Virus record (IMG/VR): IMGVR_UViG_2841800567_000010
Reading direction: 5' to 3' (one strand)
Source of the DNA: an uncultured virus (IMG/VR IMGVR_UViG_2841800567_000010)
Lineage: Duplodnaviria; Heunggongvirae; Uroviricota; Caudoviricetes
DNA: 64,000 bases
Part shown: piece after piece, positions 22,496 to 60,479 of the stretch
How the letters are laid out: each line of letters begins with the position of its first letter
How positions within the stretch are numbered: the first letter of the stretch is position 1
The notes under the pieces: model-generated
The model's database searches: none
What the model saw: only the letters and a program-made list of their open reading frames with translations
What the model was told of the DNA's origin: nothing
Position numbers and translations under genes: made by a program

Positions 22496-22570
22496 GTCTC
22501 CTTAGTTAAATGGATATAACGAGCCCCTCCTAAGGGCTAGTTGCAGGTTCGATTCCTGCAGGGGACACCA
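22496..22570 (+). tRNA. argW: tRNA-Arg(CCT)
   Basis: Cloverleaf, anticodon loop CTCCTAA, GGTTCGATTCC T-arm, encoded CCA. Confidence 0.97.
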
Positions 22571-22686
22571 TTCAACAGTTCGCCCCCATCCGTAGCAGTT
22601 CGCTAAAACCCAATAAATCCAAGCATCCCGCAAACTGCTCGTTCGCCATAGTTCGCAATCGTTCGTTGACAGCCGCACACTTCGGC

Positions 22687-22730
22687 GGGTAAAAAACGGG
22701 TAAATAATTTTACCCACCGGAATTTTACCC
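22687..22730. promoter_or_regulatory. Integrase arm-type sites in attL / int promoter region
   Basis: GGGTAAA x2, then inverted TTTTACCC x2, directly before the int ATG. Confidence 0.7.
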
Positions 22731-23882
22731 ATGCTGACCATTAAGCAGATCGACGCGGCCAAGCCAAAAGACAAACCCTACCGCCTGCTGGACAGCAATG
22801 GTCTGTACCTCTACGTTCCGGCGTCCGGTAAAAAAGTCTGGCAGCTGCGGTACAAAATCGATGGCAAGGAGAAAGTTCTGACGGTGGGAAAGTACCCGCT
22901 GATGTCATTACAGGAAGCCAGAGATAAAGCCTGGTTGGCAAGGAAGGATGTTTCGGTGGGCATAGATCCGGTTAAAGCGAAAAAGCTGTCGGTCAAGGAT
23001 AATTCTTTCGGTGCTATTTACCATGAATGGTATGAACACAAAAAACAGGTCTGGTCGCTGGGATATGCTGAGGAACTGGCGCGGATGTTCCGCGATGACA
23101 TTCTGCCAATGATCGGCGGGCTGGAAATTAACGAAATCGAGCCGATGAAGATACTGGAAGTGATCCGCAGGTTTGAAGAACGCGGCGCGATGGAGAGAGC
23201 CAATAAAGCCAGGCGCAGGTGTGGCGAGGTTTTCCGCTATGCCATAGTGACTGGCCGGGCCAAATACAATCCGGCACCCGATCTGGCTGATGCGATGAAG
23301 GGATACAGAAAACAGAACTACCCTTTCCTCCCCGCTGACCAGATACCGGCTTTTAACCGTGCGCTGGCGGGCTACTCAGGCAGCATTGTTTCTCGTATAG
23401 CAACACAGATTCTTCAGTACACCGCGCTCCGAACGAAAGAACTCCGGTCTATGCAATGGGCGAACGTCGATTTTGCAACCAGGACGATTACGATTGCGGC
23501 TGAAGTGATGAAAGGCCGCCGTATCCACATCGTCCCAATGTCAGATCAGGTTATCTCCCTACTGGAGATGCTCAGGCCAATTACGGCGCCGGTGTCCGCT
23601 TTTGTGTTCGCTGGCCGTAATGACAAAAAGAAGCCGATCAGCGAGAACGCCGTTTTGCTGGTTATCCGCCAGATCGGCTATGAAGGGCTTGCCAGCGGCC
23701 ACGGCTTCCGGCACCAGTTCAGTACCATTATGAATGAAAATGAATGGCCTCATGACGCCATAGAGCGCCAACTGGCACACACCGATAGCGGCTCTATTCG
23801 CGGCATTTACAACCATGCGCAATATCTGGAGAAGCGCCGGGAGATGATGCAGTGGTGGGCTGACTGGCTGGATGGCGCATAA
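22731..23882 (+). CDS. intS: IntS-like tyrosine integrase
   Basis: MLTIKQIDAAKPKDKPYRL; R, HGFR, LAH and YNHA catalytic motifs intact. Confidence 0.92.
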   Translation: MLTIKQIDAAKPKDKPYRLLDSNGLYLYVPASGKKVWQLRYKIDGKEKVLTVGKYPLMSLQEARDKAWLARKDVSVGIDPVKAKKLSVKDNSFGAIYHEWYEHKKQVWSLGYAEELARMFRDDILPMIGGLEINEIEPMKILEVIRRFEERGAMERANKARRRCGEVFRYAIVTGRAKYNPAPDLADAMKGYRKQNYPFLPADQIPAFNRALAGYSGSIVSRIATQILQYTALRTKELRSMQWANVDFATRTITIAAEVMKGRRIHIVPMSDQVISLLEMLRPITAPVSAFVFAGRNDKKKPISENAVLLVIRQIGYEGLASGHGFRHQFSTIMNENEWPHDAIERQLAHTDSGSIRGIYNHAQYLEKRREMMQWWADWLDGA

Positions 23883-23947
23883 ATCAAAACGGCAGCCTGT
23901 CATCCCACGCATCATCGATAACACCGGGAGCAACGTCATGGTGTGAT

Positions 23948-25216
23948 TTACACCACTACGTTAATCATCAGGTTTCTCGGCTCACCAGCCGGACCGCGGA
24001 CAATGCCTGCAATTGAGCCATTCTTAATTGATGATGTTAAATCCGTAGTAATGTATTCGACGATGCGCTGGTCCGGCCACGTATCCGATACGCTGATTTT
24101 TGCTGTTGAAGCTGAAATTTCTACCAGTTCCGCACCACGCAAATGGTTTACCCGAGAAAATGCCATCGATGGGATATCCCCCGCCGGGGTATTAGCACAC
24201 AAATTCCAGGTATGTTCGCTGCCCTTTTCGGCTGTAAGCACAATGCACCCTACAAGCGCCAGAGACGATGTCAGATCTCCAAAAATCATAGCTCCTCGGG
24301 ACTGCGCCCAGCCGGATAAAGTGGCGTCATCATTATCGGGAACAGTATCAAGAATAATCCCACGCACATCCAGAAGGCCACCGGTGGATATATCGAAGCC
24401 CATTACGCCCAGAATTCGAGTCGTTTCGTTATAATCACAGTGTGCCTTAATAGTCGGCCTCGCCAGGTCTTTAGCAGCGTAGCCATAGTATGAAGGCTGC
24501 TCCGGCGACAGTTCGGGGACTTTATCGCCATCGATATACGGATCGGCATACGGGATTAACGCTCGTGTACAGCCGGAAACCTGCGGGTACGTATCCAGTA
24601 TGAAAGTCTGTCCGGCATGCAGATGAATCGTATTGCTCTTGTTAGCCGGTGTCCGCGTAAGAGCCTCATTCAGGGTTTTAAGCGGTTTTTCTCGCGAACC
24701 GATATTATCATCACTGCCGTTAACGGTATCGACATACAGATTGAGCAAATCATCAGACGCTGACGTACCGTAGTAAAGCCCATCGTCGCGGATCTCCAGC
24801 AGATTGCCGCTATTCCCGGACAGTTTAACACCCAGCGGATCCGCCTCTGTTCCGTCGCCGTGCAGGGTCTGATCGTGAAACACTTTGAGCACATACGGGC
24901 CTGAGCAGCGGGGGAAATAGAATGCCTGTGCGCCGAGCTGGTCATAAACAGCAATCGAATAATCCTGCGTCACTACCAGTTTAACCACCTGCCCGCTGAT
25001 AACCGGGTAACCACCAGCATTGATGCTGATCGGCTGCGCTATAGGCGTCAGCGTGCCGTTCTCGCCCTCCTGGTAAACAGTTACGCGGTTCGTCTCAGCT
25101 GTAGGATCAGTATCCGGTTTGCCGACATAGATTTTACCGTTAAAAACGGTGCTGAACTGGCGCGGCATGGTGTAAAGTTCAACAGGGAGCGTGAGCGGTA
25201 CGGCGTTATCGGTCAT
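23948..25216 (-). CDS. Tailspike/fibre with P22-type head-binding domain
   Basis: NGKIYVGKPDTDP...QPISINAGGYPV; position after the ejection genes. Confidence 0.88.
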   Translation of the reverse strand: MTDNAVPLTLPVELYTMPRQFSTVFNGKIYVGKPDTDPTAETNRVTVYQEGENGTLTPIAQPISINAGGYPVISGQVVKLVVTQDYSIAVYDQLGAQAFYFPRCSGPYVLKVFHDQTLHGDGTEADPLGVKLSGNSGNLLEIRDDGLYYGTSASDDLLNLYVDTVNGSDDNIGSREKPLKTLNEALTRTPANKSNTIHLHAGQTFILDTYPQVSGCTRALIPYADPYIDGDKVPELSPEQPSYYGYAAKDLARPTIKAHCDYNETTRILGVMGFDISTGGLLDVRGIILDTVPDNDDATLSGWAQSRGAMIFGDLTSSLALVGCIVLTAEKGSEHTWNLCANTPAGDIPSMAFSRVNHLRGAELVEISASTAKISVSDTWPDQRIVEYITTDLTSSIKNGSIAGIVRGPAGEPRNLMINVVV

Positions 25217-25262
25217 TTTAATATCCTTTTATTGAGATAATTAATGGATAAGGAAGGTCAAT

Positions 25263-25697
25263 ATGATTAGCTTCTTTAAATCAAAATCAGAAGAAACAAA
25301 ACGCAATGAGTTAAATAAAGAAATTGAAATATTACAAAAATATGTAAGACAACTTCATTCCACCCTTAGCGATAAAGAGTACGAAGCGCAGAATAACTTA
25401 GGCATTATTTCTGAAAAATACAAAATACCTTTAAGCAAAGCTGCTACGCACCCTGAATTACAGCACCTACTATCAGAGTTGGTTCTTATCCGGCAATACG
25501 CACATTATAATACCGAGTTACTTATCCAGAAAAAACACGAACTCTATTTATTAATTAATGGCGGTGTAGAATCAGCCCCTAGCTTAAATGCTCACAGTTG
25601 GCTTACTGAAATAGTATTACCTGTAGCTGGCGAACAAGTTAAAACAGAAATTGCTGAATATGCTGAAAAACTGGTTAACAATACTATTACCTGTTAG
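25263..25697 (+). CDS. AT-rich moron, hypothetical coiled-coil protein
   Basis: AAGGAAGG RBS, antisense to the late operon. Confidence 0.7.
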   Translation: MISFFKSKSEETKRNELNKEIEILQKYVRQLHSTLSDKEYEAQNNLGIISEKYKIPLSKAATHPELQHLLSELVLIRQYAHYNTELLIQKKHELYLLINGGVESAPSLNAHSWLTEIVLPVAGEQVKTEIAEYAEKLVNNTITC

Positions 25698-25705: not shown

Positions 25706-27964
25706 CTATTCATCACCGACAATCCAGCCAATGATCCCCATGCGGGCCAGCGTGCGGCGTTCTTTTTCTGGCAGCGAACCGAAAAATTCGCGCCATTCTG
25801 ATGATGACCGTAGCTGGCTCTCGCTTTCCATAATTTTTCCGGCTGTCGACTTACCAGCCTGAGAGCGAAAAGCGGCCTGATAAGCCGGGGAGCTTATCAG
25901 CTTTTCCGCCGCTTCCGATGACGCGGACCCGCCAGCAATCCTTGCCTTTTCGGCCAGACGCGCACCTATCGCGGAACCGGCCAGAGCACCCAGCGATCCC
26001 CCCTGTGCACCTGCCATAGTGCCTACTTTCGCCGCGTATTTCGCCATCATGTCATGAGATGCCGTTACCCGGTCAAAGCGTTTGGTGAAGTCGTTCAGGG
26101 CACCCGTAGCAACCTCATGCGCTTTCGCCCGACGGATGGCATCAGCAACGGTATAAAGATCGCGTAAGCCTTTCTTCATATCTGTAGGCAGGTGAGGTTC
26201 AAGCAGGCGAATATTGCCGTTTTTCATCATGTTCTGATACCAGTCCGCATAGCCTCCCGGATTGAAATCAGCGCCGCGTTTACCCGCTGAGAGCATGTCA
26301 CGAATACCTGTGGCAACGATCTCTGATCGCATCTGCCGCGAAGGGATATTCATCATCAGCTCACGAAAGTCTTTACCGCTCCCTTTCGCCATCGAAGACA
26401 GGGCTGCCGAGGCTTTTGTCGTGACGTCTCCCGTCAGATTCTTGCCGCGCAGCGAAACCATTTTCTCTTCCAGATTTTTACGCATCTGTACCAGACGCTG
26501 AGCCACTTCAAAATCACGGCGGGCGCTGACTTCACCGAGCGCTGAACGCTGATCTTCTGATAACTGCCCATACAACCGTGAGAGCGCGTCTTCATCAGCA
26601 TCTTTATAAGGGCCGCTCTTTTTGTAGAGCGCCTGCCCTACCATTCTCCGCTGTTTGTTGAGGTTGGCGTAGGTCAGTCGCCCTTCCGGCCCGGGGTTGA
26701 CGGCCTTAAAAACTTTCTGCTCTATCGGATCGAGGTTCTCCCACCCTCCCAGCTCATCCGCCTGGTTTTCGAGATGCCGGGCGGTGTTAACAGCTTCAAC
26801 TTTTGAAGATGAAGGCAAAGCGCTGTCAACCCGCGAATATAGCTGATCGCTGCGACGCTCAAGCGAGGCCATACGGTTATCAACCTTACCGATAAAGTGC
26901 TCGTTCATCGCCAGCGCATCCGGCAGGCCAGCCACATCATCAATCATCTTCCCGGCATTTTCAGCCAGCTTCGCCGTTGCCCGGTCTTCCTGCACCCTCA
27001 GCACCGACCCCTTACGGGATTTAATTGCCTGCTCCACTGCCTGATATTGTGCGTTGCCCGACAGATGGGAAGGCAGTAAATCATCCGCAACGCCCAGCCG
27101 TTCCGCTGCGGTGATAACATCCTGGCGGGGCTTCAGGTCAAGACCGTTCAGAGACGAGGCCAGATCAGGGTTTTTGCTGTTGGAAATATCACGGATAGCA
27201 TCCTGCATTTTTTCCTGTTCGGGTGTGAAAGCACTCTTCACTTCCGGTTCTACGCCTGCCGATACCGCCTGTTTTTCTGCGGGACGAATACCCTGCTTAA
27301 TCACTGAGGCAATCCCGTTAACTGCGGGCACAACTGCACGAACGGCACCACTTGCTAATGTGTCGATCGCCAGATCTTTTGCCAGCCCTTCAGGATTATC
27401 AGCACTGCTGTTTTGGGCCAGAGCACCGGGTACGTTTTCAGCCAGCATATCCGCCGCTTTTGTCGCGAACCGTTCCGCACGTCCGGCACTGGCTGCAGAC
27501 CCCAGCGCGGCTGCCGTCCGCTCTGCCCCAACGCCGGGTATCAGATACGGGCCAATTTCCGCGCCGATTTTGGCGTACTCATCGTTCGGCTGAAGTGCAT
27601 CAGGTAGCGCGAAGCGCTGCGCCGGAGTGAAAGTACCGTCGCCCATGCCCAGCTTGCCACCTGCCCATGCAGCAGCACTCTGCACAGCGTCACCAACTTC
27701 AGGAATGATGTTAGCCATATTCACAGCGGACTGAGCAAGCCCCTTACCCGCTTCCAGAAAAGGATTATCCGGCTGGGACTGCTGTTGCTGGCCGGGAGAT
27801 GGATAGGCTGAATAAAAGGCCGCCTTCGCCTGCGATGCCTGGTCACCCGCACGGGGAGCGACAACCTCGTTAAAGTACTGTTCCTGCGCTTCGCTTTTCT
27901 GAGCGGGTGAAAGTTGCTGGTATTGTGGCGACGCGATAACATCTTTCCATGCTTTAGCCATCAT
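25706..27964 (-). CDS. DNA ejection protein (gp16-like)
   Basis: MAKAWKDVIASPQYQ.L...AQEQYFNEVVAP; gene order. Confidence 0.8.
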   Translation of the reverse strand: MMAKAWKDVIASPQYQQLSPAQKSEAQEQYFNEVVAPRAGDQASQAKAAFYSAYPSPGQQQQSQPDNPFLEAGKGLAQSAVNMANIIPEVGDAVQSAAAWAGGKLGMGDGTFTPAQRFALPDALQPNDEYAKIGAEIGPYLIPGVGAERTAAALGSAASAGRAERFATKAADMLAENVPGALAQNSSADNPEGLAKDLAIDTLASGAVRAVVPAVNGIASVIKQGIRPAEKQAVSAGVEPEVKSAFTPEQEKMQDAIRDISNSKNPDLASSLNGLDLKPRQDVITAAERLGVADDLLPSHLSGNAQYQAVEQAIKSRKGSVLRVQEDRATAKLAENAGKMIDDVAGLPDALAMNEHFIGKVDNRMASLERRSDQLYSRVDSALPSSSKVEAVNTARHLENQADELGGWENLDPIEQKVFKAVNPGPEGRLTYANLNKQRRMVGQALYKKSGPYKDADEDALSRLYGQLSEDQRSALGEVSARRDFEVAQRLVQMRKNLEEKMVSLRGKNLTGDVTTKASAALSSMAKGSGKDFRELMMNIPSRQMRSEIVATGIRDMLSAGKRGADFNPGGYADWYQNMMKNGNIRLLEPHLPTDMKKGLRDLYTVADAIRRAKAHEVATGALNDFTKRFDRVTASHDMMAKYAAKVGTMAGAQGGSLGALAGSAIGARLAEKARIAGGSASSEAAEKLISSPAYQAAFRSQAGKSTAGKIMESESQLRSSSEWREFFGSLPEKERRTLARMGIIGWIVGDE

Positions 27965-29133
27965 TCACCCCACAATGAAGAGTAAGCAGATTGCTGCCCA
28001 CCAGGCTTAGGGGGATTACCAGCGTATTCCGGCTTATACCCGTTCAGTCCAGCTTCTAATTTGCCAGCAATTTGCTCAAGTCTTGATTTTGTCGCGCTAT
28101 AAGAACCGCGGATACCATTGTCGCCAACGTTCAGTCCTGATGACATAGATTTTAAGAATGCCAGGTCTTTATCTGACATTGAGCCTTTAAGAAGGCCGAG
28201 ATTGCCAGCAGTTAACATGGATTGCAGTTGCTGTGCCTTATTAATTAAGTCAACGCTACCGCCCTCAAATTTTGGAATTCTGGACTGAAGTGAACCGGTC
28301 ACCACATTAAGATAAGGGTCGCTGGCAATTGTTCGGGCGAGTTGGGCAGCTTCATAAGACATATCCTTACCCTGTTTTATTTGCTGCTGACGTTCGGCAA
28401 TAGCAGCATCATTAGCATCAATTTTTTGCTGTGCGGCCTGCCGTTTGAGGTCATTGTCAGCCGCTTTATACTGGTTCTCCAGTTGCCTTTGTTGGTAGTT
28501 CAGCTTTTTCAACTGCATATCGTCCGCATGGAACTGCGCCGCCTGGTTCAGACCGGCCCAGCCGCGCGCGTCCGCCAGATTCTGCCCACGAGCTGTTAGC
28601 CCCTCGTTAGCTCTGTGGCTACGTGATGTCTCCGCTCGGGTCTCACGATTACCCTGCTCAGCGTAATAGTCCTTCACGCCCAGCGCGCCCATGCCTACCG
28701 TATCGATAATATGCTGCGTGCCGCGCGGGTCCTGCTGATACTGTTTAAATAGGTCCTCCGGCGTGCTGCCGACGCTCTGCAGCGTCGCGCGATGTTGCGC
28801 AGCTGCCTGGGCGAACGCCGCCGGATTGCCGCTGGCCGCCGCTATGCGTAAATCGCGGGCAGCATTGCCCAGCGCCATGCGGTGATTGTCGTCGCGAAAG
28901 CCAATCGCCTTCTGCACCGTCTCCATCTGCTGAGGATATTTCGCTACGATAGCATCCAGCGCAGCCGGATCTCCCGACGCATAAGCTGTTTGCCAGTCAC
29001 GCTGGAACTGCTGCTGGGCCTTTTGCTGCTCAGCCTGGGCTTTCTGCTGTTGCACCTGCTGATACATCCCGGCTCCCTGTAGCCCCTGCAAAAAACCGTT
29101 CCCGGACGTGTAGTCGATTGGTTGAAAATCCAT
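27961..29133 (-). CDS. DNA ejection protein (gp20-like)
   Basis: Q/A-rich; ETSRSHRANEGLTARGQN; gene order. Confidence 0.8.
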   Translation of the reverse strand: MDFQPIDYTSGNGFLQGLQGAGMYQQVQQQKAQAEQQKAQQQFQRDWQTAYASGDPAALDAIVAKYPQQMETVQKAIGFRDDNHRMALGNAARDLRIAAASGNPAAFAQAAAQHRATLQSVGSTPEDLFKQYQQDPRGTQHIIDTVGMGALGVKDYYAEQGNRETRAETSRSHRANEGLTARGQNLADARGWAGLNQAAQFHADDMQLKKLNYQQRQLENQYKAADNDLKRQAAQQKIDANDAAIAERQQQIKQGKDMSYEAAQLARTIASDPYLNVVTGSLQSRIPKFEGGSVDLINKAQQLQSMLTAGNLGLLKGSMSDKDLAFLKSMSSGLNVGDNGIRGSYSATKSRLEQIAGKLEAGLNGYKPEYAGNPPKPGGQQSAYSSLWGE

Positions 29134-29144
29134 GCTGCCGCCTC

Positions 29145-29711
29145 CTAAAACAATCCCGCAAGAAAGCCGATCCCCTGCGTCAGTGCCTGCCCATTTGCCA
29201 GCGAATTACCCACCTTGGCCGCGCCAATCTGATTGACGTTGTTGCTGTATGCGTTTGCGTAGTTGTTACCGCTGGTATTCATGACGTTTGCGGCATTCAT
29301 GCCGATGCCGGTCAGACCGGTCAGGTTGTTGTACTGGCTGCTCAGATACTGCTGGCCGAGCTGCGGCGCGATCGATGCCAGCGCATTGCTGGTTGCCGTG
29401 GAGCCCAGCCCGCCGGTTGCCTCGGCGCTAGCCAGCTGCTGATATCGTGCCTGATTTGCGAGGCCTGAATACTCAGACGAGTTGTAATAGTCCGCCAGCG
29501 TGCCACTGCGGTTATTGACCAGATTTTGCAGTCCGGTTAGCGCAGTACTGCCTGCATTGTAATACGGCGTCATGCGCTGAACCTGGTCGTTATAAATTTG
29601 CTGCGCCATCGCGTTTGACTGATTCGCCGCGCTGGTTGTGGCGCTGGCCGCCGCATTCGCACCGGTCACACTGCCTATCACATTGCCGACCGCCTTACCA
29701 ATTCCGCCCAT
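29145..29711 (-). CDS. DNA ejection protein (gp7-like)
   Basis: ARYQQLASAEATGGLGSTATSNALASIAP. Confidence 0.85.
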   Translation of the reverse strand: MGGIGKAVGNVIGSVTGANAAASATTSAANQSNAMAQQIYNDQVQRMTPYYNAGSTALTGLQNLVNNRSGTLADYYNSSEYSGLANQARYQQLASAEATGGLGSTATSNALASIAPQLGQQYLSSQYNNLTGLTGIGMNAANVMNTSGNNYANAYSNNVNQIGAAKVGNSLANGQALTQGIGFLAGLF

Positions 29712-30084
29712 TATTTTTCCCCTTTATCATCAGAACTACCTCGCCAGTGGAGCCGTCTAAAAACTCCATCAGCACAGTTTTTTCGTAAGCGAAGCCGAAT
29801 TTTTTCGCGAGATTACAGACATGGCGCGACGTCGCAAGAATCGGCGCACGCACCTCCCTGTCGCCAATCCGCACGAGTACGTCGCGCACCGCGTCGCGAC
29901 ACCGCCAGCGCTGGCCTGATTGCATCGCCATGTGAATTTCGACGTAATCGCCATGGTCCGGCAGCGCGAACACGCCGCAATCGCACCAGAGATAATAATC
30001 AGTGTCGTAATCCGGCCAGCTCTCCAGCCCCCACGCGCGAAATAATGCCTGCCCTGTGAGAGCATCAATTTTTTGAAGGTTCAT
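29695..30084 (-). CDS. gp14-position virion assembly protein
   Basis: Position between gp26 and gp7; EIHMAM, NLAKKFGF. Confidence 0.6.
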   Translation of the reverse strand: MNLQKIDALTGQALFRAWGLESWPDYDTDYYLWCDCGVFALPDHGDYVEIHMAMQSGQRWRCRDAVRDVLVRIGDREVRAPILATSRHVCNLAKKFGFAYEKTVLMEFLDGSTGEVVLMIKGKNNGRNW

Positions 30085-30086: not shown

Positions 30087-30578
30087 TTAGTCGATTAAGC
30101 CGTGGGCGCGCAGCGCGTCCTCTAAAGCCTTGATGCGCTGGCGGGCCTCTTTCAGGCCACCGGGTGCTGAGTCGGGATCGAAATCAGCGTCGGCGTTGAA
30201 CGCCCCGCTGCTGGCGCTGCCGGTTGCGGGAGTAAAACCGGTCACGCGGCCACCGACGACCTGAATGCCGTTAACCGTGAAGGATGTCGCACCGAGGGAG
30301 CCGCCAACGCTCTGCGCATCGGTGGCGCTTTTTGACACGTAATCACCGTTAATTTGCTTCAGCGCCTCACCCTGGCTGGCAATAGTCTTGTCCTGCTCTT
30401 CGTTCTGCTCCTGTGCCGTGTTGGCATCCCGGCCAGCTGAATTGGCCTTGTTCGCAATATTCACCATGCTGTTGCTCTGCTGCAGGACATACAGCTGATA
30501 TGCCCGGGAGAAATTGGAAGGGAGCATTTGCGCATTGATTGGTGTGGGGAGTACCTGCACATCATCATTTTTAGCCAT
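30087..30578 (-). CDS. Tail needle protein (gp26-like)
   Basis: LPSNFSRAYQLYVLQQ...DYVSKSAT...ALEDALRAHGLID. Confidence 0.88.
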   Translation of the reverse strand: MAKNDDVQVLPTPINAQMLPSNFSRAYQLYVLQQSNSMVNIANKANSAGRDANTAQEQNEEQDKTIASQGEALKQINGDYVSKSATDAQSVGGSLGATSFTVNGIQVVGGRVTGFTPATGSASSGAFNADADFDPDSAPGGLKEARQRIKALEDALRAHGLID

Positions 30579-32346
30579 AACCCGCCCTTAACTGACAGTA
30601 AGCCAGCGCGGCTGGCGTACTGGTGACAAAGCGCAGGCGAAATCCGATGTTTTTACGACACCGACCGATCCTGCGCCAGATGATCCGCTGGTCGTAGCGG
30701 TAGAGGCTGTTGGAGGTGATTAACTGCTCACGCCCGTAATTACTGCCGTCCGTCGTCACCGAGATAAAGCAGCGCTCTGCTTCCAGCGCCAGCCCTGCGG
30801 CGGATTCAATCTCAAAGTCAAACAGCAGGGAGTTGTCCGCTTTCGCCAGCGGGGTATAAAGGACCAGCTCAGCGGCTTCGTCATATTGAGACGCGAGCGC
30901 AGGATCCAGTCTGCCGGTTACGCCCTCATTTTTGTCGCCCAGCGTGACGGCTGACCCGTCCCACATCAGATCAATCCCACGGTAAACAGCGTCATACAGG
31001 CCACTTTTCAGAATGCACCATTGCGGCCCGTCACCCGAGGCACTCCCATCGAAGCAGAGCGTATGCCGGGGCAGGTGCACGATCAGCAGTTCGTGGCCGT
31101 CAAATCTGACCGACTCCAGCACGCCGGACGCCAGTTCGTCAGCGCTGTAACCGCTTATCAGTTTTTCGACGGTCGGCGTTGCAATCGCTTTTTTGCTGCC
31201 ACTGTCGATGAGGTACACGGACGGTGCGCCTGTAGCCGGGTGACTGAGCACAGCGAACGAATCGCCGTAATGGCATTTACAGTAAGTCCCTGCGATGCCG
31301 GTATTCACCATCAGCGACGGCTGTGCAATGTAAACCGCATCGCTGGTGCTGGAACTGCCGGACAGCGAGAAATATTCTGTCGTGGCCGAGCCGAAACAAA
31401 CCACCATATCCCGCCAGCTGCCCACCCCCTGAATGCCGTCTGGCATTGACTCAGCCCGGTAAAATGGTCGGTACTGGTCCGGGTGTGTTTCGTCCTCAAG
31501 ATCCGTTATGCCGAAGGTGTCCGTACCATCTTTGACCCAGATATAGCGGCTCCGGTTGTGGCAGATATCGCGGACGGTCCCGATCTCATACTGCGCATAA
31601 TCGAGCGAAATCTCGTTAACGGTCAGATCGACAGACACCGCCGTAGCGTCAGTGCCGCCGCCGTTAAATGTCCAGCTCAGGGTAACAATGCTGCCGCTGG
31701 TTTTGCTGCCGGTTACCAACACCTCAGAAAGCCATGGGCCGCTTTCAGGCTTTTCCTGAGTCTGTTCGCTGCCCCACTGGCTTTCTGTGACTGTCAGCGC
31801 CTCGCCGGTAGTGCCGTCTGATTTTGTTGGCGTAAGCGTGATCGTTATTTTACCGTCCTGCGACTCTGCCGGGACATAAAACGCATCGCTGCCGCTGGCG
31901 GTGTGCGTCCACGCGCTGAGCGTTTTCTCGTAACCCTCCTGTGATATGACCGTTTCCGGCCAGTTATCGAGCGCTGTAAGCGTCTTATCATCGTAGCTGT
32001 AAAGCAGCAACTGGCCGTCAGCCGCCACGCCCTGGCTGCTGTAGCTGTGTGCCATGCTGACCCGCCCGCTGCCGGGTATGGTGACTTCAAGATCGGAGCC
32101 CCTGGCGTACAGCTTCGCACCGGCCACGCGAAACAGCTCACTTTGTTTTGTATTGTACTCCGCGCCGCGGGAAGTGCCGTCCACCTCCGCAGCTTTCGCT
32201 ATGCCAGGAAACGAGCGCATGTAACCCGCAGCGTTCAGCACCGGTTGCGGCACGGCCAGCATATTTACGGGCAGGAGATCGACGTAGTCAGCGATAAACG
32301 GGTTCTTCCCTTTACCCTTAATTATCGGAAGCTGGATCATCGGCAT
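30571..32346 (-). CDS. Tail hub / packaged DNA stabilisation protein (gp10-like)
   Basis: Likely start MPMIQLPIIKGKGK; DYVDLLPVNMLA, YRAESMPDGI. Confidence 0.92.
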   Translation of the reverse strand: MPMIQLPIIKGKGKNPFIADYVDLLPVNMLAVPQPVLNAAGYMRSFPGIAKAAEVDGTSRGAEYNTKQSELFRVAGAKLYARGSDLEVTIPGSGRVSMAHSYSSQGVAADGQLLLYSYDDKTLTALDNWPETVISQEGYEKTLSAWTHTASGSDAFYVPAESQDGKITITLTPTKSDGTTGEALTVTESQWGSEQTQEKPESGPWLSEVLVTGSKTSGSIVTLSWTFNGGGTDATAVSVDLTVNEISLDYAQYEIGTVRDICHNRSRYIWVKDGTDTFGITDLEDETHPDQYRPFYRAESMPDGIQGVGSWRDMVVCFGSATTEYFSLSGSSSTSDAVYIAQPSLMVNTGIAGTYCKCHYGDSFAVLSHPATGAPSVYLIDSGSKKAIATPTVEKLISGYSADELASGVLESVRFDGHELLIVHLPRHTLCFDGSASGDGPQWCILKSGLYDAVYRGIDLMWDGSAVTLGDKNEGVTGRLDPALASQYDEAAELVLYTPLAKADNSLLFDFEIESAAGLALEAERCFISVTTDGSNYGREQLITSNSLYRYDQRIIWRRIGRCRKNIGFRLRFVTSTPAALAYCQLRAGYG

Positions 32347-32786
32347 GGTGTCGTTTCCTGTGAAAATATCGCGATGTGTGACGGTTACCGCTGCCGGTTG
32401 GCATCCGGTTGGGATAACTGAGATGAGGCGTTCGCCGCTTCGCCAGCCACTTGACGATCCGCTCTTTGCCATAACTGCCTTTGGCAACCAGTCCGGCGGG
32501 AGCCTCCTGTCCGTAGTCAGCCAGCATGCGAATTGCCAGACAAACCAGCACGGCGTTGATGCAAAAATCAGGCAGGTTGTGGACATCCTCCGGTAATGGT
32601 GATGCACCGCTTTCCGAAAAGGCATACCCCACATCAATACCGCGCCGTTCGTCATCCATAAGCCATTCGGACATCATCAGATCGAGGTCGTCGAGGCCAT
32701 CTTCCAGCGACTGAGGGTCAACATCCGTCAGCGTGGCATTGCTGGCGAGCGAAGCCTTACGCAGCGCTGCCAGCACAATATCGCCC

Positions 32787-32803
<17 letters not shown>
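32318..32803 (-). CDS. Head-tail connector (gp4-like)
   Basis: TKGDIVLAALRK...YPNRMPTGSGN. Confidence 0.92.
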
Positions 32804-33071
<268 letters not shown>

Positions 33072-34408: not shown

Positions 34409-34419
34409 TATTTTGATCC

Positions 34420-35328: not shown

Positions 35329-35341
35329 GTTTTTTTACTCT

Positions 35342-46166: not shown

Positions 46167-46167
46167 A

Positions 46168-49082: not shown

Positions 49083-49780
49083 ATGAAATCCTCCCAGCCC
49101 TCACGGCTATTCCAGTGTGGGGTTTGCTGCACAGATCCGGGTTTAATACCGAGCTTCACGGCCTGCTTGTTCTGGTAGCTAATTTTTTGACTTGCAGTGA
49201 TAAACCAGTTTTTTGGCTTGTCGTGGCTGAACTCGATATCCAGCTTCTGAAGCTCGTACACCAGATCGATGCTTGAGTAGAGATCGGCCCACAACTTAAA
49301 ATCGGCGTGGTTTAGCTTCACGACATTGCCTTCAAAGGCGTAACGAGAAACGTCGAGTTGATTGTTATGGGGAGCGTGAGCAACTGGTGTTTCTTTAGGT
49401 TCTATGACTGGTTCAAAAGAGTGACTGGTTCTGGGTGACTCTGTGTCACCAGGTGGGTGACTCTGTGTCACTACCCCCGGTAACTTTCTGACACCAGGTG
49501 GTGACTCTGTGTCACCACATAAAACGAGATGATAAATGTTGCTTGAATTCCCTTTTGGACCTGATCGATATTCCTTTCTGAGCAGCCCGCATTCACATAA
49601 ATCATCTATGTGTCGCATCACTGATCTCTTACTAATTTCACATTGATCCGCGATATGCTGATAGGAAGGCCAGCACTCTCCCCTGTCATGAGCATTGTCT
49701 GCCAGCTTTATCAGCACTAACTTTCTCAATGGATTGCCAACGGTGATGCTCATGGCTTTAGCCATTAAGTTCATACTCAT
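49079..49780 (-). CDS. Replication initiator (O-like, HTH)
   Basis: RKLVLIKLADNA...CWPSYQHIADQCEIS; contains iterons. Confidence 0.88.
   Translation of the reverse strand: MSMNLMAKAMSITVGNPLRKLVLIKLADNAHDRGECWPSYQHIADQCEISKRSVMRHIDDLCECGLLRKEYRSGPKGNSSNIYHLVLCGDTESPPGVRKLPGVVTQSHPPGDTESPRTSHSFEPVIEPKETPVAHAPHNNQLDVSRYAFEGNVVKLNHADFKLWADLYSSIDLVYELQKLDIEFSHDKPKNWFITASQKISYQNKQAVKLGIKPGSVQQTPHWNSREGWEDFI
49434..49515. repeat. Phage origin iterons
   Basis: GGTGACTCTGTGTCAC at 49434, 49456 and 49500, degenerate copy at 49479; 21-23 bp spacing. Confidence 0.85.
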
Positions 49781-50475
49781 GCTGCTTTTACCTGTACCTG
49801 ATGAGCGGACCAAAGGCCGGCGATCCACTGGATGCCTTTCGGCGTGAATTTAACCTGAGTGAATGCGTGTCCGTTAAGCTGGTTCTCTCCGGTTTTAACG
49901 GTGAACCGCCCGGCGTCGATATGTTGTGAGTAAGGAGTAATCTTTCCGGCCAGCACGTACATGATCTGGCTATCCAGGAGAAACTGGCGAAAAGCGTTCT
50001 CTTTGATGTGGAGCAGCTTGCAGGTTTCTCGGAAACCAAGTGATCCGCTTGCGCTCACGTAGCTGTCGACAAACTGAGCTTTAGGCGCAGCAATGGCAAG
50101 CTGGTTTTCAAGCTGCTGGCGCTGTTCAACCTGATCGGCCCAGGCGCGTGCAGCAATGGCCGGGTTGTTGAAGTCTGGCAACTGAGGACGAATTGCATCT
50201 TCAAGCTCATGCAGCCGTTTAATGACCTTCATGCGTAGCATTGCGTTGTAACCAGTCACCAGGCATTCAGTGTGCTCGCGGTCCAGTGCATACTCAGTTT
50301 GCTGTCGATTCATGCTGTCAAAATAGATACGCTCAAAAGTGAGCGCATCTTCATTCAAGTCAGCCAGCATATTTTCAATGTCGCGCTTAACGTTTTTGTG
50401 TTCCTTGCCGGTTAACTCTGCGATCTCCCGGCTGGTCATTTTCAGGCTGTTACCTGCGATCATATTTCCTGGCAT
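49777..50475 (-). CDS. Rha / KilA-C (Roi-like) protein
   Basis: MTSREIAELTGKEHKNVKRDI; AAPKAQFVD...FTPKG. Confidence 0.88.
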   Translation of the reverse strand: MPGNMIAGNSLKMTSREIAELTGKEHKNVKRDIENMLADLNEDALTFERIYFDSMNRQQTEYALDREHTECLVTGYNAMLRMKVIKRLHELEDAIRPQLPDFNNPAIAARAWADQVEQRQQLENQLAIAAPKAQFVDSYVSASGSLGFRETCKLLHIKENAFRQFLLDSQIMYVLAGKITPYSQHIDAGRFTVKTGENQLNGHAFTQVKFTPKGIQWIAGLWSAHQVQVKAA

Positions 50476-50493: not shown

Positions 50494-50799
50494 TTAGAAA
50501 GACATTGATATCTGAGAAGCCTCAGCTGTTCGTGCAGCCGGGGCTTTTTGCTTTTGTATCTGCGGGATTGCGGCGAGTATCCGCTTCGCTATTTCAAACA
50601 CCTCCGTGTCGTCCACCCCGTACTCCAGGATGGCAATAGCCATTGCAGCCTGCTGAAAGAACCCGTCTTTCATCCTGCTTACTTTCGTATCCGTTAAGCC
50701 CATAAGCTTCGCGAACTTCGTCTGCCCCATAACGGCCAGCTTCCCAAGTAACTGCGACTCAATCCGAGACGCTTTTTTGCGGTACTTTGCAGCTTCCAT
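50494..50799 (-). CDS. cII: CII activator
   Basis: IESQLLGKLAVMGQ..FA...SRMK...LEYGV. Confidence 0.88.
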   Translation of the reverse strand: MEAAKYRKKASRIESQLLGKLAVMGQTKFAKLMGLTDTKVSRMKDGFFQQAAMAIAILEYGVDDTEVFEIAKRILAAIPQIQKQKAPAARTAEASQISMSF

Positions 50800-50905: not shown

Positions 50906-51121
50906 TTATGCTGCTTTGTTACGTTTGGTGCCGTTCATCAGCCAATTAGCATCACACTGAAGCGCGGCAGCCAGCTCAAACAGAAAGCGCGAGCGCTTCG
51001 TTACGCCGGACTCGATAGACTGTATGGACTGTTGTCGCATACCCGCCTTATCAGCCAACTGCGCCTGGGTCATATTGCGTTCCAGTCGCTTCTGTTTGAG
51101 GCGTTGAGAAAAAGTATCCAT
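50906..51121 (-). CDS. cro: Cro (434-like)
   Basis: MTQAQLA...[14 protein letters not shown]. Confidence 0.92.
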
Positions 51122-51133: not shown

Positions 51134-51192
51134 ACAGTTTTAACTGTATTCTCCGACAGATAAATCTGTTTGTCAAATACAGTTTTGCCTGT
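51134..51192. promoter_or_regulatory. OR operators and pR
   Basis: ACAG-N6-CTGT at 51134, 51156 and 51179; minus-strand TTGACA-17-GAGAAT. Confidence 0.85.
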
Positions 51193-51220
51193 GAGGATCG
51201 ATATAAATGGAGAGGAACAT

Positions 51221-51850
51221 ATGAGCCTTGCAGATAGAGTTAAAAAAAGAAGAAATGAAACCGGCTTGTCTCAAGCAGAGGCAGCAGAAAAGGCAGGTAT
51301 AAGGCAGCAATCTTGGGCTAGTATTGAGGATGGTAAGACCCTCAAGCCTCGCAATATTGTTGGTATCGCAGAGGCGCTTAAATGTGACCCTGCGTGGCTT
51401 ATGAACGGTGGAGTTTTCCTGCCAGTCAGCGAGGTCAACACAAGGAGGATTCCATTGATCAGCTATGTTCAGGCGGGTGAACTCGCAACTAAAAGCCCAA
51501 TAGAAGCGATGGATGGTAGCTTTGAATACGTAATGACAGACATGGAATGGTCGCACTACACCTTTGCGTTACGGATTGTGGGTGACTCTATGGAGCCAGA
51601 TTTTAAGGCTGGCGATGTGATCATCGTTGACCCCGAGATTGAACCCAGCCCTGGCGAATTTGTTGTCGGTAAGAATGGAGATCACGAGGCCACATTTAAA
51701 AAATACCGGCCAACATCATTCAAGGATGGAGTGCAACACTTTGAGTTGGTTCCACTTAATAACGATTACCCGACCATGAATAGCGCAGAGCGCCACATCA
51801 CTATCATCGGTACGATGGTCGAACACCGGATCTACCGCCGCAAAAGATAA
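51221..51850 (+). CDS. cI: CI repressor (HTH plus S24 peptidase)
   Basis: VQAG cleavage site, GDSM and TFKKY; terminator at 51868-51893. Confidence 0.95.
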   Translation: MSLADRVKKRRNETGLSQAEAAEKAGIRQQSWASIEDGKTLKPRNIVGIAEALKCDPAWLMNGGVFLPVSEVNTRRIPLISYVQAGELATKSPIEAMDGSFEYVMTDMEWSHYTFALRIVGDSMEPDFKAGDVIIVDPEIEPSPGEFVVGKNGDHEATFKKYRPTSFKDGVQHFELVPLNNDYPTMNSAERHITIIGTMVEHRIYRRKR

Positions 51851-52038: not shown

Positions 52039-52259
52039 CGCTCTTTAACAATCAGGACTGAGGGTGATACACCCCACCAAAGTGCAGTTGGCTTTGGGAT
52101 TGGATGAATGCGCAGGCTGATGCGCACCGAGATCGCAATGTAAGTCGCTATGCGCAGTGATAGATGGTATGCGCGGCGTAATGCCGTACAAGGTCTGGTT
52201 TAGTGCCATCCAGAATGCCGGAAATTACACAGCACCGGCCATCCAATCACCTAAGCCAA
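52039..52259 (+). promoter_or_regulatory. nutL and N-leader RNase III-type stem
   Basis: boxA CGCTCTTTAACA, GGGTGATACACCC hairpin; long stem 52088-52106 / 52240-52259. Confidence 0.7.
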
Positions 52260-52273
52260 TTACAGGAGGCTCT

Positions 52274-52525
52274 ATGCCACGCAATAAGCAAAAGAATCTG
52301 GCCCGAGCCGCAGCGCACCGGGCTGAGAAGCAGAAAGATATGCGGTTAGGCCGCAAGGTTGAGGCAGCCATGACCGGCTGCTCTGACCGCGTACTGAAAG
52401 CAGTCACCCAGGCACCTAACTGGCGTGTTAAGCCAGTTGAAAGCGCATCCATTTGTTTGCCCGAGGTCGCGCAGTTTGCCGCCGGGTTCCGCAAGCCAAC
52501 AAAGAGCATTTATCCAGCGAGGTGA
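52274..52525 (+). CDS. N-like early antiterminator
   Basis: AGGAGG RBS, basic N-terminus, CLPEVAQFAAGFRK. Confidence 0.75.
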   Translation: MPRNKQKNLARAAAHRAEKQKDMRLGRKVEAAMTGCSDRVLKAVTQAPNWRVKPVESASICLPEVAQFAAGFRKPTKSIYPAR

Positions 52526-53880: not shown

Positions 53881-54372
53881 ATGCAACTATCTCATTCTGA
53901 GTTGCAGTCAGTACTTTCTTATTCACCCGAAACAGGAAGATTCACTTGGAATAAGAAAAGCGGAACCAAAATAAGGAACTCAGTGGCGGGGACTCATCAC
54001 AAAACTGGATACGTAGTGATCACCATCCAAAAGAAACCTTATAGAGCACACCGTTTGGCTTGGTTTTATGTGTATGGAGAGTGGCCTACCGAAGATATTG
54101 ACCACATAAATCGAATCCGATCAGACAACCGGCTTTGTAATTTAAGGCTGGCGAATAAAAGCCAAAATCAACATAACACAGGGTTAGGTAGAAATAACTC
54201 TTCTGGCTTTAAAGGGGTTTATTTCTCAACCCGAGAAGGGAAATTTCTTGCCCAAATAATGGTGAGCCGCAAGAGGGTATCTCTTGGTTATCACCGAACC
54301 ACAATAGAAGCACATCAAGCATATAAGAACGCAGCCGCCATATATCATGGCGAGTTTTCATCTGAAAAATAA
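53881..54372 (+). CDS. HNH-AP2 homing endonuclease
   Basis: AHRLAW, IDHINRIRSDNRLCNLR, SGFKGV. Confidence 0.92.
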   Translation: MQLSHSELQSVLSYSPETGRFTWNKKSGTKIRNSVAGTHHKTGYVVITIQKKPYRAHRLAWFYVYGEWPTEDIDHINRIRSDNRLCNLRLANKSQNQHNTGLGRNNSSGFKGVYFSTREGKFLAQIMVSRKRVSLGYHRTTIEAHQAYKNAAAIYHGEFSSEK

Positions 54373-55762: not shown

Positions 55763-56344
55763 ATGATGGAAAAATACTACGTATCGGGCGTCAAAACCGA
55801 CGCTAAAGGCCACTGTGAAATCTGTGATGACGACTCCGCGAACTTTTACACCCTCTATGAAAGGAATGAGTCAGGAGAAAGCCAGGGAATTATCGATCTG
55901 AACTTTCGTGAAGATGCAGACGCAGCGATGAAAGTTTACGTTGAACGTAACGCCCTGCAGCAGCAGGTGAACGCGCTGGCAGCTGAAGGGGCAATGATGC
56001 GCCAGATTATCGATTCAGTAACTGACCTCGATAACGAACCTCAGTATCACTACGAAGGCATGGGGTGCGGACTGGAAGACCGAAACATCACTGACCGCTA
56101 CGAGGCGATGCGTCATGGTTGGGATCAGGCGATGGAAAGCGTTTACGGCGAGTTAATCCCCTGCGCTGATCAGCTGGATTTTTCAGCTACCGATGCCGCT
56201 ATCAGGGAGATGATGGCGCAGGGTGTGGAGAAATTGGCTATTCACCTTCGTGCAAATGGCAATGATGCATCTCCATGTAATTTGATTGCAATTGGCGCAG
56301 AAGATTTTGCTGCCCAACTCCGCGCCGGTGAGGTGTCCAAATGA
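55763..56344 (+). CDS. Hypothetical early-left protein
   Basis: GMGCGLEDRNITDRYEA; AAQLRAG C-terminus. Confidence 0.65.
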   Translation: MMEKYYVSGVKTDAKGHCEICDDDSANFYTLYERNESGESQGIIDLNFREDADAAMKVYVERNALQQQVNALAAEGAMMRQIIDSVTDLDNEPQYHYEGMGCGLEDRNITDRYEAMRHGWDQAMESVYGELIPCADQLDFSATDAAIREMMAQGVEKLAIHLRANGNDASPCNLIAIGAEDFAAQLRAGEVSK

Positions 56345-56916
56345 AAAAGTTCGAACTTGTTGCTGAAATTTCCAAAGAGTTTTTCGGTAGAAAACTGTTC
56401 CGCATTCGCGCCATGATTTCGTTTGGTAATGTTCAAACTGGTGATTTGGGTGGCTGGGTTGAGAGCGAGAGTAATGTAGAACAGTCCGGCAATGCATGGG
56501 TGTACGGCGATGCATGGGTGTCCGGCGATGCGAAGGTGTACGGCAATGCGAAGGTGTCCGGCGATGCATGGGTGTACGGCAATGCGAAGGTGTACGGCAA
56601 TGCGCAGGTGTACGGCGATGCATGGGTGTACGGCAATGCGAAGGTGTACGGCAATGCGAAGGTGTCCGGCGATGCGCACTGGATCTCTATCGGGCCAATT
56701 GGTTCAGAGAATGGTTTCCTGACAGCGTTCCGGCAGCGTGATAACAGCATCATGGTCAGACGCGGATGTTTCTCTGGCACGATTGACGAGTTTGAGTCAG
56801 CTGTTAACGATACGCACAGCGACAACCAGCACGGCGATATTTATCGCGCCCTGATTCTGGTTATTAAGTTGAGGCTGGCAGAAGTTGAAGGTGAGCAGGG
56901 AGGCGACCATGCGTGA
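56341..56916 (+). CDS. Hexapeptide-repeat (left-handed beta-helix-like) protein
   Basis: G[ND]A[WKQ]V[YS] x10; GDLGGWVE, RGCFSG. Confidence 0.85.
   Translation: MKKFELVAEISKEFFGRKLFRIRAMISFGNVQTGDLGGWVESESNVEQSGNAWVYGDAWVSGDAKVYGNAKVSGDAWVYGNAKVYGNAQVYGDAWVYGNAKVYGNAKVSGDAHWISIGPIGSENGFLTAFRQRDNSIMVRRGCFSGTIDEFESAVNDTHSDNQHGDIYRALILVIKLRLAEVEGEQGGDHA
56488..56676 (+). repeat. 18-bp coding tandem repeat, about 10.5 units
   Basis: GGC[A/G]ATGC[A/G]..GGTGT[A/C]C units. Confidence 0.92.
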
Positions 56917-57133
56917 ACTCCCCACTCCATCGGATGTGCAGTTGAGCATCGTTCGCCCAAGGGGTGATTTAGAAAACCCAATCAGGATGATTATCCGCGT
57001 TGAGCGAGGGAAAACAATCACTCTGGAAATATTACCCCATGAGTTTGCCCTGGCTCTAACCGGTAGTAGTGACAGAGGTGCAAAAATGTACCTGCGAAAT
57101 ATTGAAGTGAAGCGCATCGGGGGTGACTCATGA
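56909..57133 (+). CDS. Hypothetical protein
   Basis: GGAGG RBS, MRELPTP. Confidence 0.55.
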   Translation: MRELPTPSDVQLSIVRPRGDLENPIRMIIRVERGKTITLEILPHEFALALTGSSDRGAKMYLRNIEVKRIGGDS

Positions 57134-57609
57134 ACCAGCGCCCTATTCTCGACATGTGCTGCGGCTCCCGCATGTTCTGGCTGAACAAGTCTGACCCTCG
57201 TGCCGTATTTACTGACATTCGCAGTGAGTCGCATACGCTGTGCGATGGTAGGCCATTGCACATCTCGCCGGACATTATCGCTGATTTTCGCGCTCTGCCA
57301 TTTGCTGATAACTCCTTCTCACAGGTTGTATTCGATCCGCCTCATCTCGTTCGCGTCGGTGAAAAGGCATGGATGGGTAAAAAGTATGGCCGGTTAAACC
57401 GAGAAACGTGGCAGGACGATATTAGACAAGGATTTGGTGAGGCGTTCAGAGTGCTGCGGCCACAAGGAACTCTCATCTTTAAGTGGAATGAAACGCAGAT
57501 ACCAGCCAGCCAGATAATTGCCCTGACTGACCAAGAACCGACAATCTGGCAACGTACCGGAAAGGCCGACAAAACTCACTGGATTCTGTTTATTAAGGAG
57601 CCAGCATGA
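57130..57609 (+). CDS. Small class I SAM-dependent methyltransferase, copy 1
   Basis: ILDMCCGSRMFW, VVFDPPH, LIFKWNE. Confidence 0.88.
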   Translation: MNQRPILDMCCGSRMFWLNKSDPRAVFTDIRSESHTLCDGRPLHISPDIIADFRALPFADNSFSQVVFDPPHLVRVGEKAWMGKKYGRLNRETWQDDIRQGFGEAFRVLRPQGTLIFKWNETQIPASQIIALTDQEPTIWQRTGKADKTHWILFIKEPA

Positions 57610-59232: not shown

Positions 59233-59332
59233 CCATCAACATCTTATTCATAGCCCTGTGCATTGTGGCTGCGCGAGAAAGACTGAGTCGCTGAAGCGGC
59301 TTTTTTTGTGTCCAGAATTCGGAGTAACCAAC

Positions 59333-59542
59333 ATGTATGCAGACCAAATTGACGAGGCAGCAGCACGTCAGCAGCAGATGATTGATAACGCCCTGGCTAA
59401 CCGACCAGTGCCGCAAATGACATTTACCGGCGAGTGCCACTGGTGCGAAGAGTCGATCAACAGTGGCCATTTCTGTGATGCTGAGTGCCGCGATGACCAC
59501 GCAAAAATGATATGGGCAGAGAGCCAGAGAAGAGCTGGATGA
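59333..59542 (+). CDS. TraR/DksA-like C4 Zn-finger protein
   Basis: ADQIDEA...CHWCEE...FCDAECRDD. Confidence 0.7.
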   Translation: MYADQIDEAAARQQQMIDNALANRPVPQMTFTGECHWCEESINSGHFCDAECRDDHAKMIWAESQRRAG

Positions 59543-59767
59543 ATGGAGCCAGCGACTGAAAACGCGTTGCGGTCAGTAGCCCGAAGTTGCAGGGAGGAAA
59601 TCATCAGTGCCAAGAAAGGCAAGCCCAAACCCGAGCACGACCGCATTACTACCCTTCTGTTAGACAAATACACCAAACTAATCACCGCGCTGCCGCCTGG
59701 CAGATACCCGGCCCGTCAATGGCTGGTCTACTTCGTGCGCGTGGTGGATAAGGAGATGAAGAATTGA
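59543..59767 (+). CDS. Hypothetical protein
   Basis: In operon. Confidence 0.55.
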   Translation: MEPATENALRSVARSCREEIISAKKGKPKPEHDRITTLLLDKYTKLITALPPGRYPARQWLVYFVRVVDKEMKN

Positions 59768-60237
59768 GTGAGGCAACGATTTTAGATATGTGCTGCGGCT
59801 CTCGCATGTTCTGGCTTGATAAGCAGGACAGCAGAGCCGTTTTTTCTGATGTACGAAATGAGAGCCATACGCTATGTGATGGGCGGCTACTCAATATCGC
59901 GCCGGACGTGATCGCTGATTTCCGCAGGTTGCCATTCCCTGCTGACACTTTCGCCCAGGTTGTTTTCGATCCGCCGCATCTCGACCGCGCCGGAGAAAAT
60001 GGCTGGATGCGAAAAAAGTACGGCGCGCTGAATAAGGAAACATGGCGCGAGGATATCCGGGCGGGATTTACTGAAGCATTCCGCGTATTACGGCCACACG
60101 GAACGTTAATTTTTAAGTGGAACGAAACGCAGATACCGGTTAGCCAAGTCATCGCGCTGACCGATCAGAAACCGACTATCTGGCAGCGCACCGGCAAAGG
60201 CGATAAAACGCACTGGATTTTATTCCTGAAACCTTAA
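59764..60237 (+). CDS. Small class I SAM-dependent methyltransferase, copy 2
   Basis: Paralogue of 57130-57609. Confidence 0.88.
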   Translation: MSEATILDMCCGSRMFWLDKQDSRAVFSDVRNESHTLCDGRLLNIAPDVIADFRRLPFPADTFAQVVFDPPHLDRAGENGWMRKKYGALNKETWREDIRAGFTEAFRVLRPHGTLIFKWNETQIPVSQVIALTDQKPTIWQRTGKGDKTHWILFLKP

Positions 60238-60281
60238 TCCCCCTCCCCCACACATCGCAACCAAATAATCGAGGTATAGCT

Positions 60282-60479
60282 ATGCACCAACATCAGCTAC
60301 AGCCAGACTCGCTTGTTGATCTGAAATTCATCATGGCGGATACTGGCTTCGGAAAGACGTTCATCTACGAACGCATCAAAGACGGCACCCTGCCTGCCTT
60401 ATTCGATGTATGCAGGGGACACCATCCGCGGGTATTTCCACATCCAGCAAAGTCCACAAAATTCTTTAAATCCCTTTGA
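60282..60479 (+). pseudogene. torI: TorI-like excisionase (RDF), truncated after about 38 aa and reading through attR
   Basis: LQPDSLVDLKFIMADTGFGKTFIY.RIK.G.LP, then non-homologous ALFDVCRGHH (the att core). Confidence 0.85.

Follow-up and report, generated by a model that had tools for sequence, protein, structure and literature searches.

What becomes of a temperate phage that keeps its genes but loses the means of leaving the chromosome is the question raised by the DNA analysed here, the 64,000-nt stretch of IMG/VR virus record IMGVR_UViG_2841800567_000010 (hereafter the window, meaning the whole stretch), which holds a prophage of the P22/HK620 type at a tRNA-Arg(CCT) gene. This gene is the sole tRNA found by ARAGORN in the window (22496-22570, plus strand), and its last 14 bases plus one base beyond form a 15-nt core, TGCAGGGGACACCAT, of which just two copies occur in the nearest genome, G001, the genome on which whole-genome comparisons were made. 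The 37.9 kb enclosed by the two core copies has the full anatomy of a P22/HK620-type temperate phage. The element is probably a young prophage that has been locked in by a 149-bp deletion at its right end, attR, that is otherwise intact by sequence, and that would act as a locked-in P22.

The attR deletion and the truncated excisionase

The open reading frame (ORF) that abuts attR matches TorI-family excisionases, or recombination directionality factors (RDFs), in 31 phage records, including HkaC of HK620, gp18 of Sf6 and the Erwinia phage vB_EhrS_49. Among the matches listed, 24 of 25 span residue 1 or 3 to residue 38 of the ORF with 83-95% identity, and the remaining one covers residues 1-60 at 40% identity. 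Alignment with three full-length relatives shows conservation through ...KDGTLP and unrelated sequence beyond, the 27 residues after P38 being translated from a deletion junction, the att core and what follows it. TorI-family RDFs of full length have about 66 aa and include a winged helix and a C-terminal part. Here residues 1-38 alone remain, the protein being cut off at the position equivalent to TorI residue 38, with loss of the wing and the C-terminal part.

Alignments with HK620, vB_EhrS_49 and the same-genus genome G008 reveal the cause as a clean gap of 149 bp, a size taken from the coordinates of G008, with its endpoints in CCCTGCC(T) within xis and in a second copy 17 nt before the core. 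Between these points HK620 and the Erwinia phage hold the rest of xis, two GGGTAAA repeats that are annotated as attP repeats in the HK620 record, a spacer and the second CCCTGC; the window jumps directly from the CCCTGCC in xis to the 17 core-proximal nt. Codons 39-66 of the excisionase and both GGGTAAA repeats of the P arm were removed by the deletion. G008 represents the intact form, with an RDF of 66 aa and the 8-nt repeat CCCTGCCT at both places, and a scan for the core-proximal sequence in one genome per species gave one record (L022), also of the intact form.

At the opposite end the left arm of attL is conserved with HK620 and vB_EhrS_49, including the five GTTCG motifs, whose two-block arrangement is that described for the TorI sites on attL of KplE1 (PMC2951348). 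The integrase next to it keeps all three domains in a full-length family match. Four GGGTAAA sites were found by motif scan in attL, at 22687-22730, and none between 57382 and 62322, the P arm of attR being without its two repeats. A sequence-only reading of the same DNA had described these arm sites as present at attL and absent before attR, the TorI-like RDF as breaking after GTLP and entering the att core, and the missing arm sites as consistent with a short deletion at CCCTGCC. The motif scan and the protein alignment agree with the first two statements, and the alignment of attR with relatives, the check it had proposed, puts the deletion at 149 bp; its view that truncation of the RDF and absence of the P arm ground the prophage is supported by the sequence comparison.

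TorI is essential for excision, the winged-helix mutants F22I, R45Q, A46V and one of Tyr28 being totally inactive in vitro, and its C-terminal part binds the integrase IntS (PMC3509656). The attR substrate for in vitro excision in the same source starts at the 3′ end of torI and therefore includes the stretch deleted here. Judging by the HK620 annotation, this substrate and the lambda model, the P-arm repeats would also be required for excision. The lesion is thereby predicted to act both in trans, as the excisionase would not be authentic after residue 38, and in cis, as the P arm of attR would lack its two integrase arm-type repeats; because of the cis defect excision should fail even with an RDF supplied from elsewhere. 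No second TorI-like gene was found in G001, where the single match is the truncated copy. It is well supported by these comparisons that one 149-bp deletion between CCCTGCC(T) microhomologies would suffice to ground the prophage.

The junction of G001 is the same as that of the window (100% identity), and in runs X1 and X2, whose organism labels differ, short-read contigs span 59728-60933 unchanged. All sampled words of the junction stretch are present in 12 runs, which represent 11 samples in 4 studies. Among these junction-holding runs several are flagged as possible sources of the same DNA, and they may represent one clonal lineage. In a search of 41 genomes the junction was found in G001 only (0 of the 40 other relatives). 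Two runs, X15 and X13, of which one bears the organism label of many junction holders and the other a different label, have contigs whose match to the window starts at the first core base (60411) and extends rightward only. These two runs therefore carry the neighbouring island and lack this end of the prophage; to the left of the core there could be an empty site or another element. The four runs were compared as assembled contigs, which show neither attP/attB junction reads nor coverage profiles.

Phage genes, packaging site and flanking DNA

About 55 ORFs of the prophage are open with end-to-end family matches. By PHROG, Pfam and the P22 record, all 14 P22 packaging and virion genes are open, of full length and in P22 order, the set including gp3, gp2, gp1, gp8, gp5, gp4, gp10, gp26, gp14, gp7, gp20, gp16 and the tailspike. 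Of the lambdoid early region, an SOS-type CI, Cro, N and Q are present, as are O/P and an origin; NinG, NinB, an antirepressor, Erf and two methyltransferases are found too. Pfam matches span positions 3-421 of 423 for the coat (PF11651), 1-594 of 594 for the portal (PF16510), 1-162 of 162 for lambda P and 1-116 of 116 for the S24 domain of CI. The earlier listing of CI/Cro/N/Q, O/P with iterons, terS, terL, portal, coat, tail and lysis genes as all open is thus confirmed by profile matches that run essentially end to end.

The small terminase is 91% identical to P22 gene 3 over the aligned columns of its 5′ part and 82% over those of its 3′ part, and it contains a 22-mer that is unique in the window (0 of 100 shuffles match) and in G001. 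The homologous stretch of P22 gene 3 is here taken to be the P22 pac site. The pac site of P22 is located midway in terS, packaging proceeds toward the 3′ end of the gene and the headful is about 44 kb (PMC8575938). Because terS is on the minus strand with its 3′ end toward attL at 22.5 kb, packaging would run to lower coordinates, the pac-like site being oriented for an exit from the prophage across attL into the chromosome. The sequence-only reading had also predicted leftward packaging, with which the orientation of terS and the P22 direction rule agree; it had placed a pac site within terS at 39376-39397, 3 nt off the position found for the pac-like 22-mer.

The late region is shared with provirus G002, which is rated 100% complete by CheckV. 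The structural genes are 98-100% identical between the two: identity reaches 100% for coat, scaffold, gp10, endolysin, Rz and an unknown ORF, the portal has one synonymous change, and terL differs by 13.5 synonymous and 4.5 non-synonymous differences. This near-identity marks the prophage as young, and at such an age open frames call for no particular explanation, even beside broken neighbours. The small terminase has only 68% identity to that of G002 and the genes on either side 98-100%, from which it is concluded that this gene was swapped; the replacement looks like a clean swap of packaging specificity to the P22-type gp3. Searched by megablast, phage records gave only mosaic matches of about 74-78% to P22-like phages, none of them close. 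Matches of E. coli genomes to the window are confined to the insertion sequence (IS) element and the tRNA region, and the host is therefore not E. coli.

Comparison of the window with G001 over 64 kb gives 52 substitutions and 50 small indels of the homopolymer type; in the part from 44 to 64 kb, the short-read contigs of X1 and X2 follow the window without gaps. That the frames of the window are unreliable, given its 1-2-bp indels relative to G001, was considered and rejected, as the short-read contigs side with the window. This agreement, together with a coat gene that is split in G001 but whole in the window, where it is identical to that of G002, is why the frames are taken as reliable. 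The completeness of G001 is 94%; this low value and its apparent pseudogenes may partly be assembly error, in view of the indels and the split coat gene. Word depth is similar for the prophage and flank contigs of X1, such depths not being rankable. Positions of all features are collected in Table 1.

Table 1. Features of the prophage and its surroundings, in window coordinates
Feature	Position	Strand	Basis or remark
fadL	4587-5876		left flank
mlaA	5924-6685		left flank
Truncated IS256-type transposase	20079-20999		Pfam
attL core TGCAGGGGACACCAT	22557-22571		direct repeat family D8, sequence
P′ arm of attL	22572-22730		two blocks of GTTCG motifs, five in all; four arm-type repeats, GGGTAAA/TTTACCC
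IntS/HK620-type tyrosine integrase, 383 aa	22731-23882	+	Arm-DNA-bind_3, Phage_int_M, Phage_integrase (Pfam); phrog_1
Tailspike, 422 aa, P22 head-binding domain and short receptor domain	23948-25216	-	PF09008
144-aa ORF at P22 sieA position, between gp16 and tailspike	25263-25697	+	gene order
gp16, gp20, gp7, gp14 homologues (ejection, stability)	25706-30084	-	PHROG; P22 gene order
Tail needle (gp26-like, 163 aa), gp10-like and gp4-like head-completion proteins	30087-32863	-	phrog_1219, phrog_578, PF11650
Coat, scaffold, portal, large terminase, full length	33113-38979	-	PF11651, PF16510, Terminase_6N, 6C
P22 gp3-type small terminase	39182-39661	-	PF16677 1-105/105
pac-like 22-mer	39373-39394	-	21/22 bases as in homologous stretch of P22 gene 3
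Holin, endolysin, Rz lysis cassette	41181-42910	-	PHROG, Pfam
Q antiterminator	43777-44559	-	phrog_127, PF03589
Lambda P-family helicase loader and O-like initiator	48321-49828	-	PF06992, phrog_8540
18-nt iterons inside O	49432-49515		repeat families D4/D5
CII	50494-50799	-	immunity region
Cro	50906-51121	-	immunity region
CI with helix-turn-helix (HTH) and S24 peptidase domains	51170-51850	+	immunity region
N	52157-52525	+	immunity region
Truncated TorI-family RDF, 65-aa ORF	60282-60479	+	protein search, alignment
Deletion junction	60388-60410		CCCTGCC(T) microhomology and 17 retained core-proximal nt
attR core TGCAGGGGACACCAT	60411-60425		repeat search, sequence
P4-type integrase right of attR	60590-61887 (ORF open from 60520)	+	Pfam
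IS200 fragment	62241-62480		in tandem island right of attR

Several accessory features were seen within the prophage. The 144-aa ORF at the sieA position has no match to family profiles or PADLOC defence systems, and PADLOC gave no match among 12 accessory ORFs. The tailspike homologue in G002 has 448 aa when counted from its first possible start. One HNH endonuclease gene (42034-42519) is wedged between holin and endolysin and a second (53881-54372) lies in the early-left operon upstream of erf; both look like homing-endonuclease insertions, with intact neighbours. Also in the early-left region, ten tandem 18-nt units at 56448-56693 (ORF 56341-56916) encode a YdcK-type beta-solenoid repeat protein. 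Two small DNA methyltransferase genes, 57130-57609 and 59764-60237, are paralogous, being 72% identical over 300 nt within 2.6 kb, and a third methylase, of the C5 type, is found at 45303-46346.

Left of the tRNA an integrase is broken up into three ORFs (21061-22426, minus strand), and the breaks occur also in G001, there being no differences between the window and G001 across 20543-23624. This split gene immediately precedes the 5′ side of the tRNA and is oriented away from it, an odd place for a tRNA-targeting element. Further left are a phage Q gene, a DUF3289 gene split in two, and fragments of GtrA and a glycosyltransferase. The stretch 15062-16268 is 88% identical to the left part of G002, and at 15247-15617 a dense patch of some 30 substitutions separates the window from G001, a pattern resembling gene conversion among remnants of related prophages. 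A Y2-transposase (IS91-type) element is present twice, at 2019-3008 and 11682-12671, with identical Pfam scores for both copies and more copies nearby in G001. The ORF at 1038-1721 matches only the first 58 of 113 profile positions of a CdiA-CT RNase A-like toxin domain and is probably an orphan or broken toxin tip of a contact-dependent inhibition (CDI) system. To the right, the P4-type integrase gene begins 165 bp from the core and forms the left end of a tandem island outside the prophage; as G001 has only two cores, there is no third att site to the right and none that marks the far end of the island. The description of the surrounding elements as pseudogenised in the sequence-only reading fits the split integrase, the truncated IS256-type transposase, the split DUF3289 gene and the IS200 fragment. 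It had also listed the tRNA, mlaA and fadL in leftward order; mlaA and fadL are indeed to the left, but 16 kb from the tRNA and not adjoining it.

Predicted behaviour and competing explanations

Upon inactivation of the repressor the prophage would be expected to replicate in place and to amplify its flanks, as in P22 Δxis or locked-in P22. Headful packaging would start at about 39.39 kb and proceed leftward through 16.8 kb of late genes and int, then through attL and the tRNA, and would then cross 16 kb of decayed mobile DNA and pass mlaA and fadL into the chromosome. The first headful would come to its end close to the window's left edge or past it, and no particle would carry the whole phage genome. 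In P22 Δint and Δxis prophages the flanking host DNA is amplified by escape replication, titres are much lower and lateral transduction, whose direction pac in terS determines, is above that of the wild type, and locked-in P22 prophages are already known to replicate in situ (PMC8575938). With so direct a precedent it is a reasonable prediction that the prophage would act as a locked-in, laterally transducing P22. The proposed mechanism is sound but not new, because the engineered P22 mutants already show the phenotype. Among the 15 entries listed out of 38 hits of a literature search, no title or abstract described a natural excision-deleted P22-like prophage performing lateral transduction, and one may be in print.

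A number of points weigh against this account. Loss of excision, inducibility, particle formation and lateral transduction are all predictions from sequence, and open frames are not proof of function, since an inert prophage would also result from point mutations, a silenced promoter or a CI that resists cleavage. The requirement for the P-arm repeats is carried over from an annotation, a substrate and the lambda paradigm. The tailspike (422 aa) and the needle (163 aa) are much shorter than those of P22, though they match those of G002. Also the iteron count varies, G001 having 24 bp more than the window and the X1 contig 22 bp less; the window thus has one iteron fewer than G001 and X1 one fewer still, which could affect the origin or could reflect assembly collapse.

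One alternative is that the prophage, besides being grounded, can neither be induced nor make particles any more, perhaps because of regulatory or missense damage invisible in the frames, and is at the first step of decay, as its neighbours are. The host region is full of decayed mobile elements, there is no sign of expression, no RNA run being among the runs listed with junction words, and the iteron number differs between assemblies, all of which would suit such an inert element. The some 55 open ORFs with end-to-end matches, the 98-100% identity of the structural genes to those of a provirus rated complete, and a CI that keeps its HTH and full S24 domain speak the other way, and the alternative is regarded as rather unlikely. 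Should the prophage nevertheless be silent, it would simply illustrate the first step of ordinary prophage decay.

Very little probability is given to the idea that the prophage is a domesticated device resembling a gene transfer agent (GTA), in which loss of excision was selected for mobilising the chromosome to the left of the tRNA. The recurrence of the same junction in G001, in the contigs of two runs and, as words, in 12 runs from 4 studies would agree with it, as would intact frames inside a decaying neighbourhood and the precedent of P22 Δxis with raised lateral transduction (PMC8575938). The runs may again be one clonal lineage, however, several being flagged as possible sources of the same DNA, and the presence of the prophage is polymorphic, two runs, one of them with the same label, being without this right end. 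The near-identity to G002 leaves too little time for selection to show, the junction is absent from all 40 further relatives searched, and long-term vertical retention across the lineage, which is characteristic of a GTA, was not found. The phage-type control by CI/Cro/N/Q and the own pac are kept, with none of the host control of known GTAs. The claim of an obligate or GTA-like element in the sequence-only reading is consequently not upheld, its virion genes being 98-100% identical to those of another provirus, its presence polymorphic and its control the ordinary one by CI/Cro with an S24 domain.

A bolder form of the idea, that the prophage is a dedicated lateral-transduction engine whose genes are kept by selection for transfer, an incipient GTA at its first step, is scarcely more probable, and the same faint likelihood attaches to its further part, that the prophage is fixed in a lineage with a genome full of IS elements and pseudogenes. 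If it were true, some cells would be sacrificed upon an SOS response and would export, headful after headful, the chromosome that lies left of tRNA-Arg. Elements in tandem at a single tRNA site are sometimes mobilised jointly, and a second integrase gene lies 165 bp to the right of attR, but continued mobility by another route, through a helper RDF or integrase or by leaving with the adjacent island, is highly improbable in view of the single, truncated TorI-like gene and only two core copies in G001, with no third site rightward, and of the P-arm defect in cis.

The locked-in P22-type prophage remains the probable explanation, and with its lesion mapped to the base and an intact relative available it makes a clean natural test case. 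The questions that it opens are whether a grounded whole prophage fires, what is then packaged, and whether there is more exchange in the chromosome to the left.

Comparison with known systems

GTAs, including the Bartonella GTA and PBSX-like defective prophages, are described in the available sources as making phage-derived particles that contain host DNA and do not propagate, and the same is predicted here. GTAs are old, conserved and regulated by the host. Preferential packaging of their own locus is not a feature of described GTAs (PMC12946183). Unlike them, this prophage appears young, polymorphic and phage-regulated, and it would package directionally from its own pac.

The argW module of KplE1 (CPS-53), HK620 and Sf6 shares with this prophage the target tRNA, the core and the integrase adjacent to attL, as well as the GTTCG sites of the TorI type and GGGTAAA arm repeats on attL and the RDF gene abutting attR. 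KplE1 is a small remnant that is still able to excise; here the prophage is full, and the RDF and the P arm of attR are hit by the deletion.

Locked-in Mud-P22 prophages have been used to package defined segments of the chromosome. The likeness lies in a P22 prophage without a functional end, replication in place and packaging of the adjacent chromosome in one direction from pac, which for this prophage is a prediction. Mud-P22 are laboratory constructs in which a whole prophage end is missing, whereas this prophage keeps both cores, the integrase and all phage genes.

Closest are the engineered P22 Δxis, Δint and Δint-xis prophages (Fillol-Salom et al. 2021, PMC8575938), P22-type pac/headful phages that are unable to excise, as is predicted for this prophage. 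P22 uses its own Int/Xis at thrW, unlike this prophage with its KplE1/HK620-type recombination module at tRNA-Arg. Also unlike the P22 mutants, the lesion is a natural 149-bp deletion between microhomologies, which removed the arm sites of attR as well.

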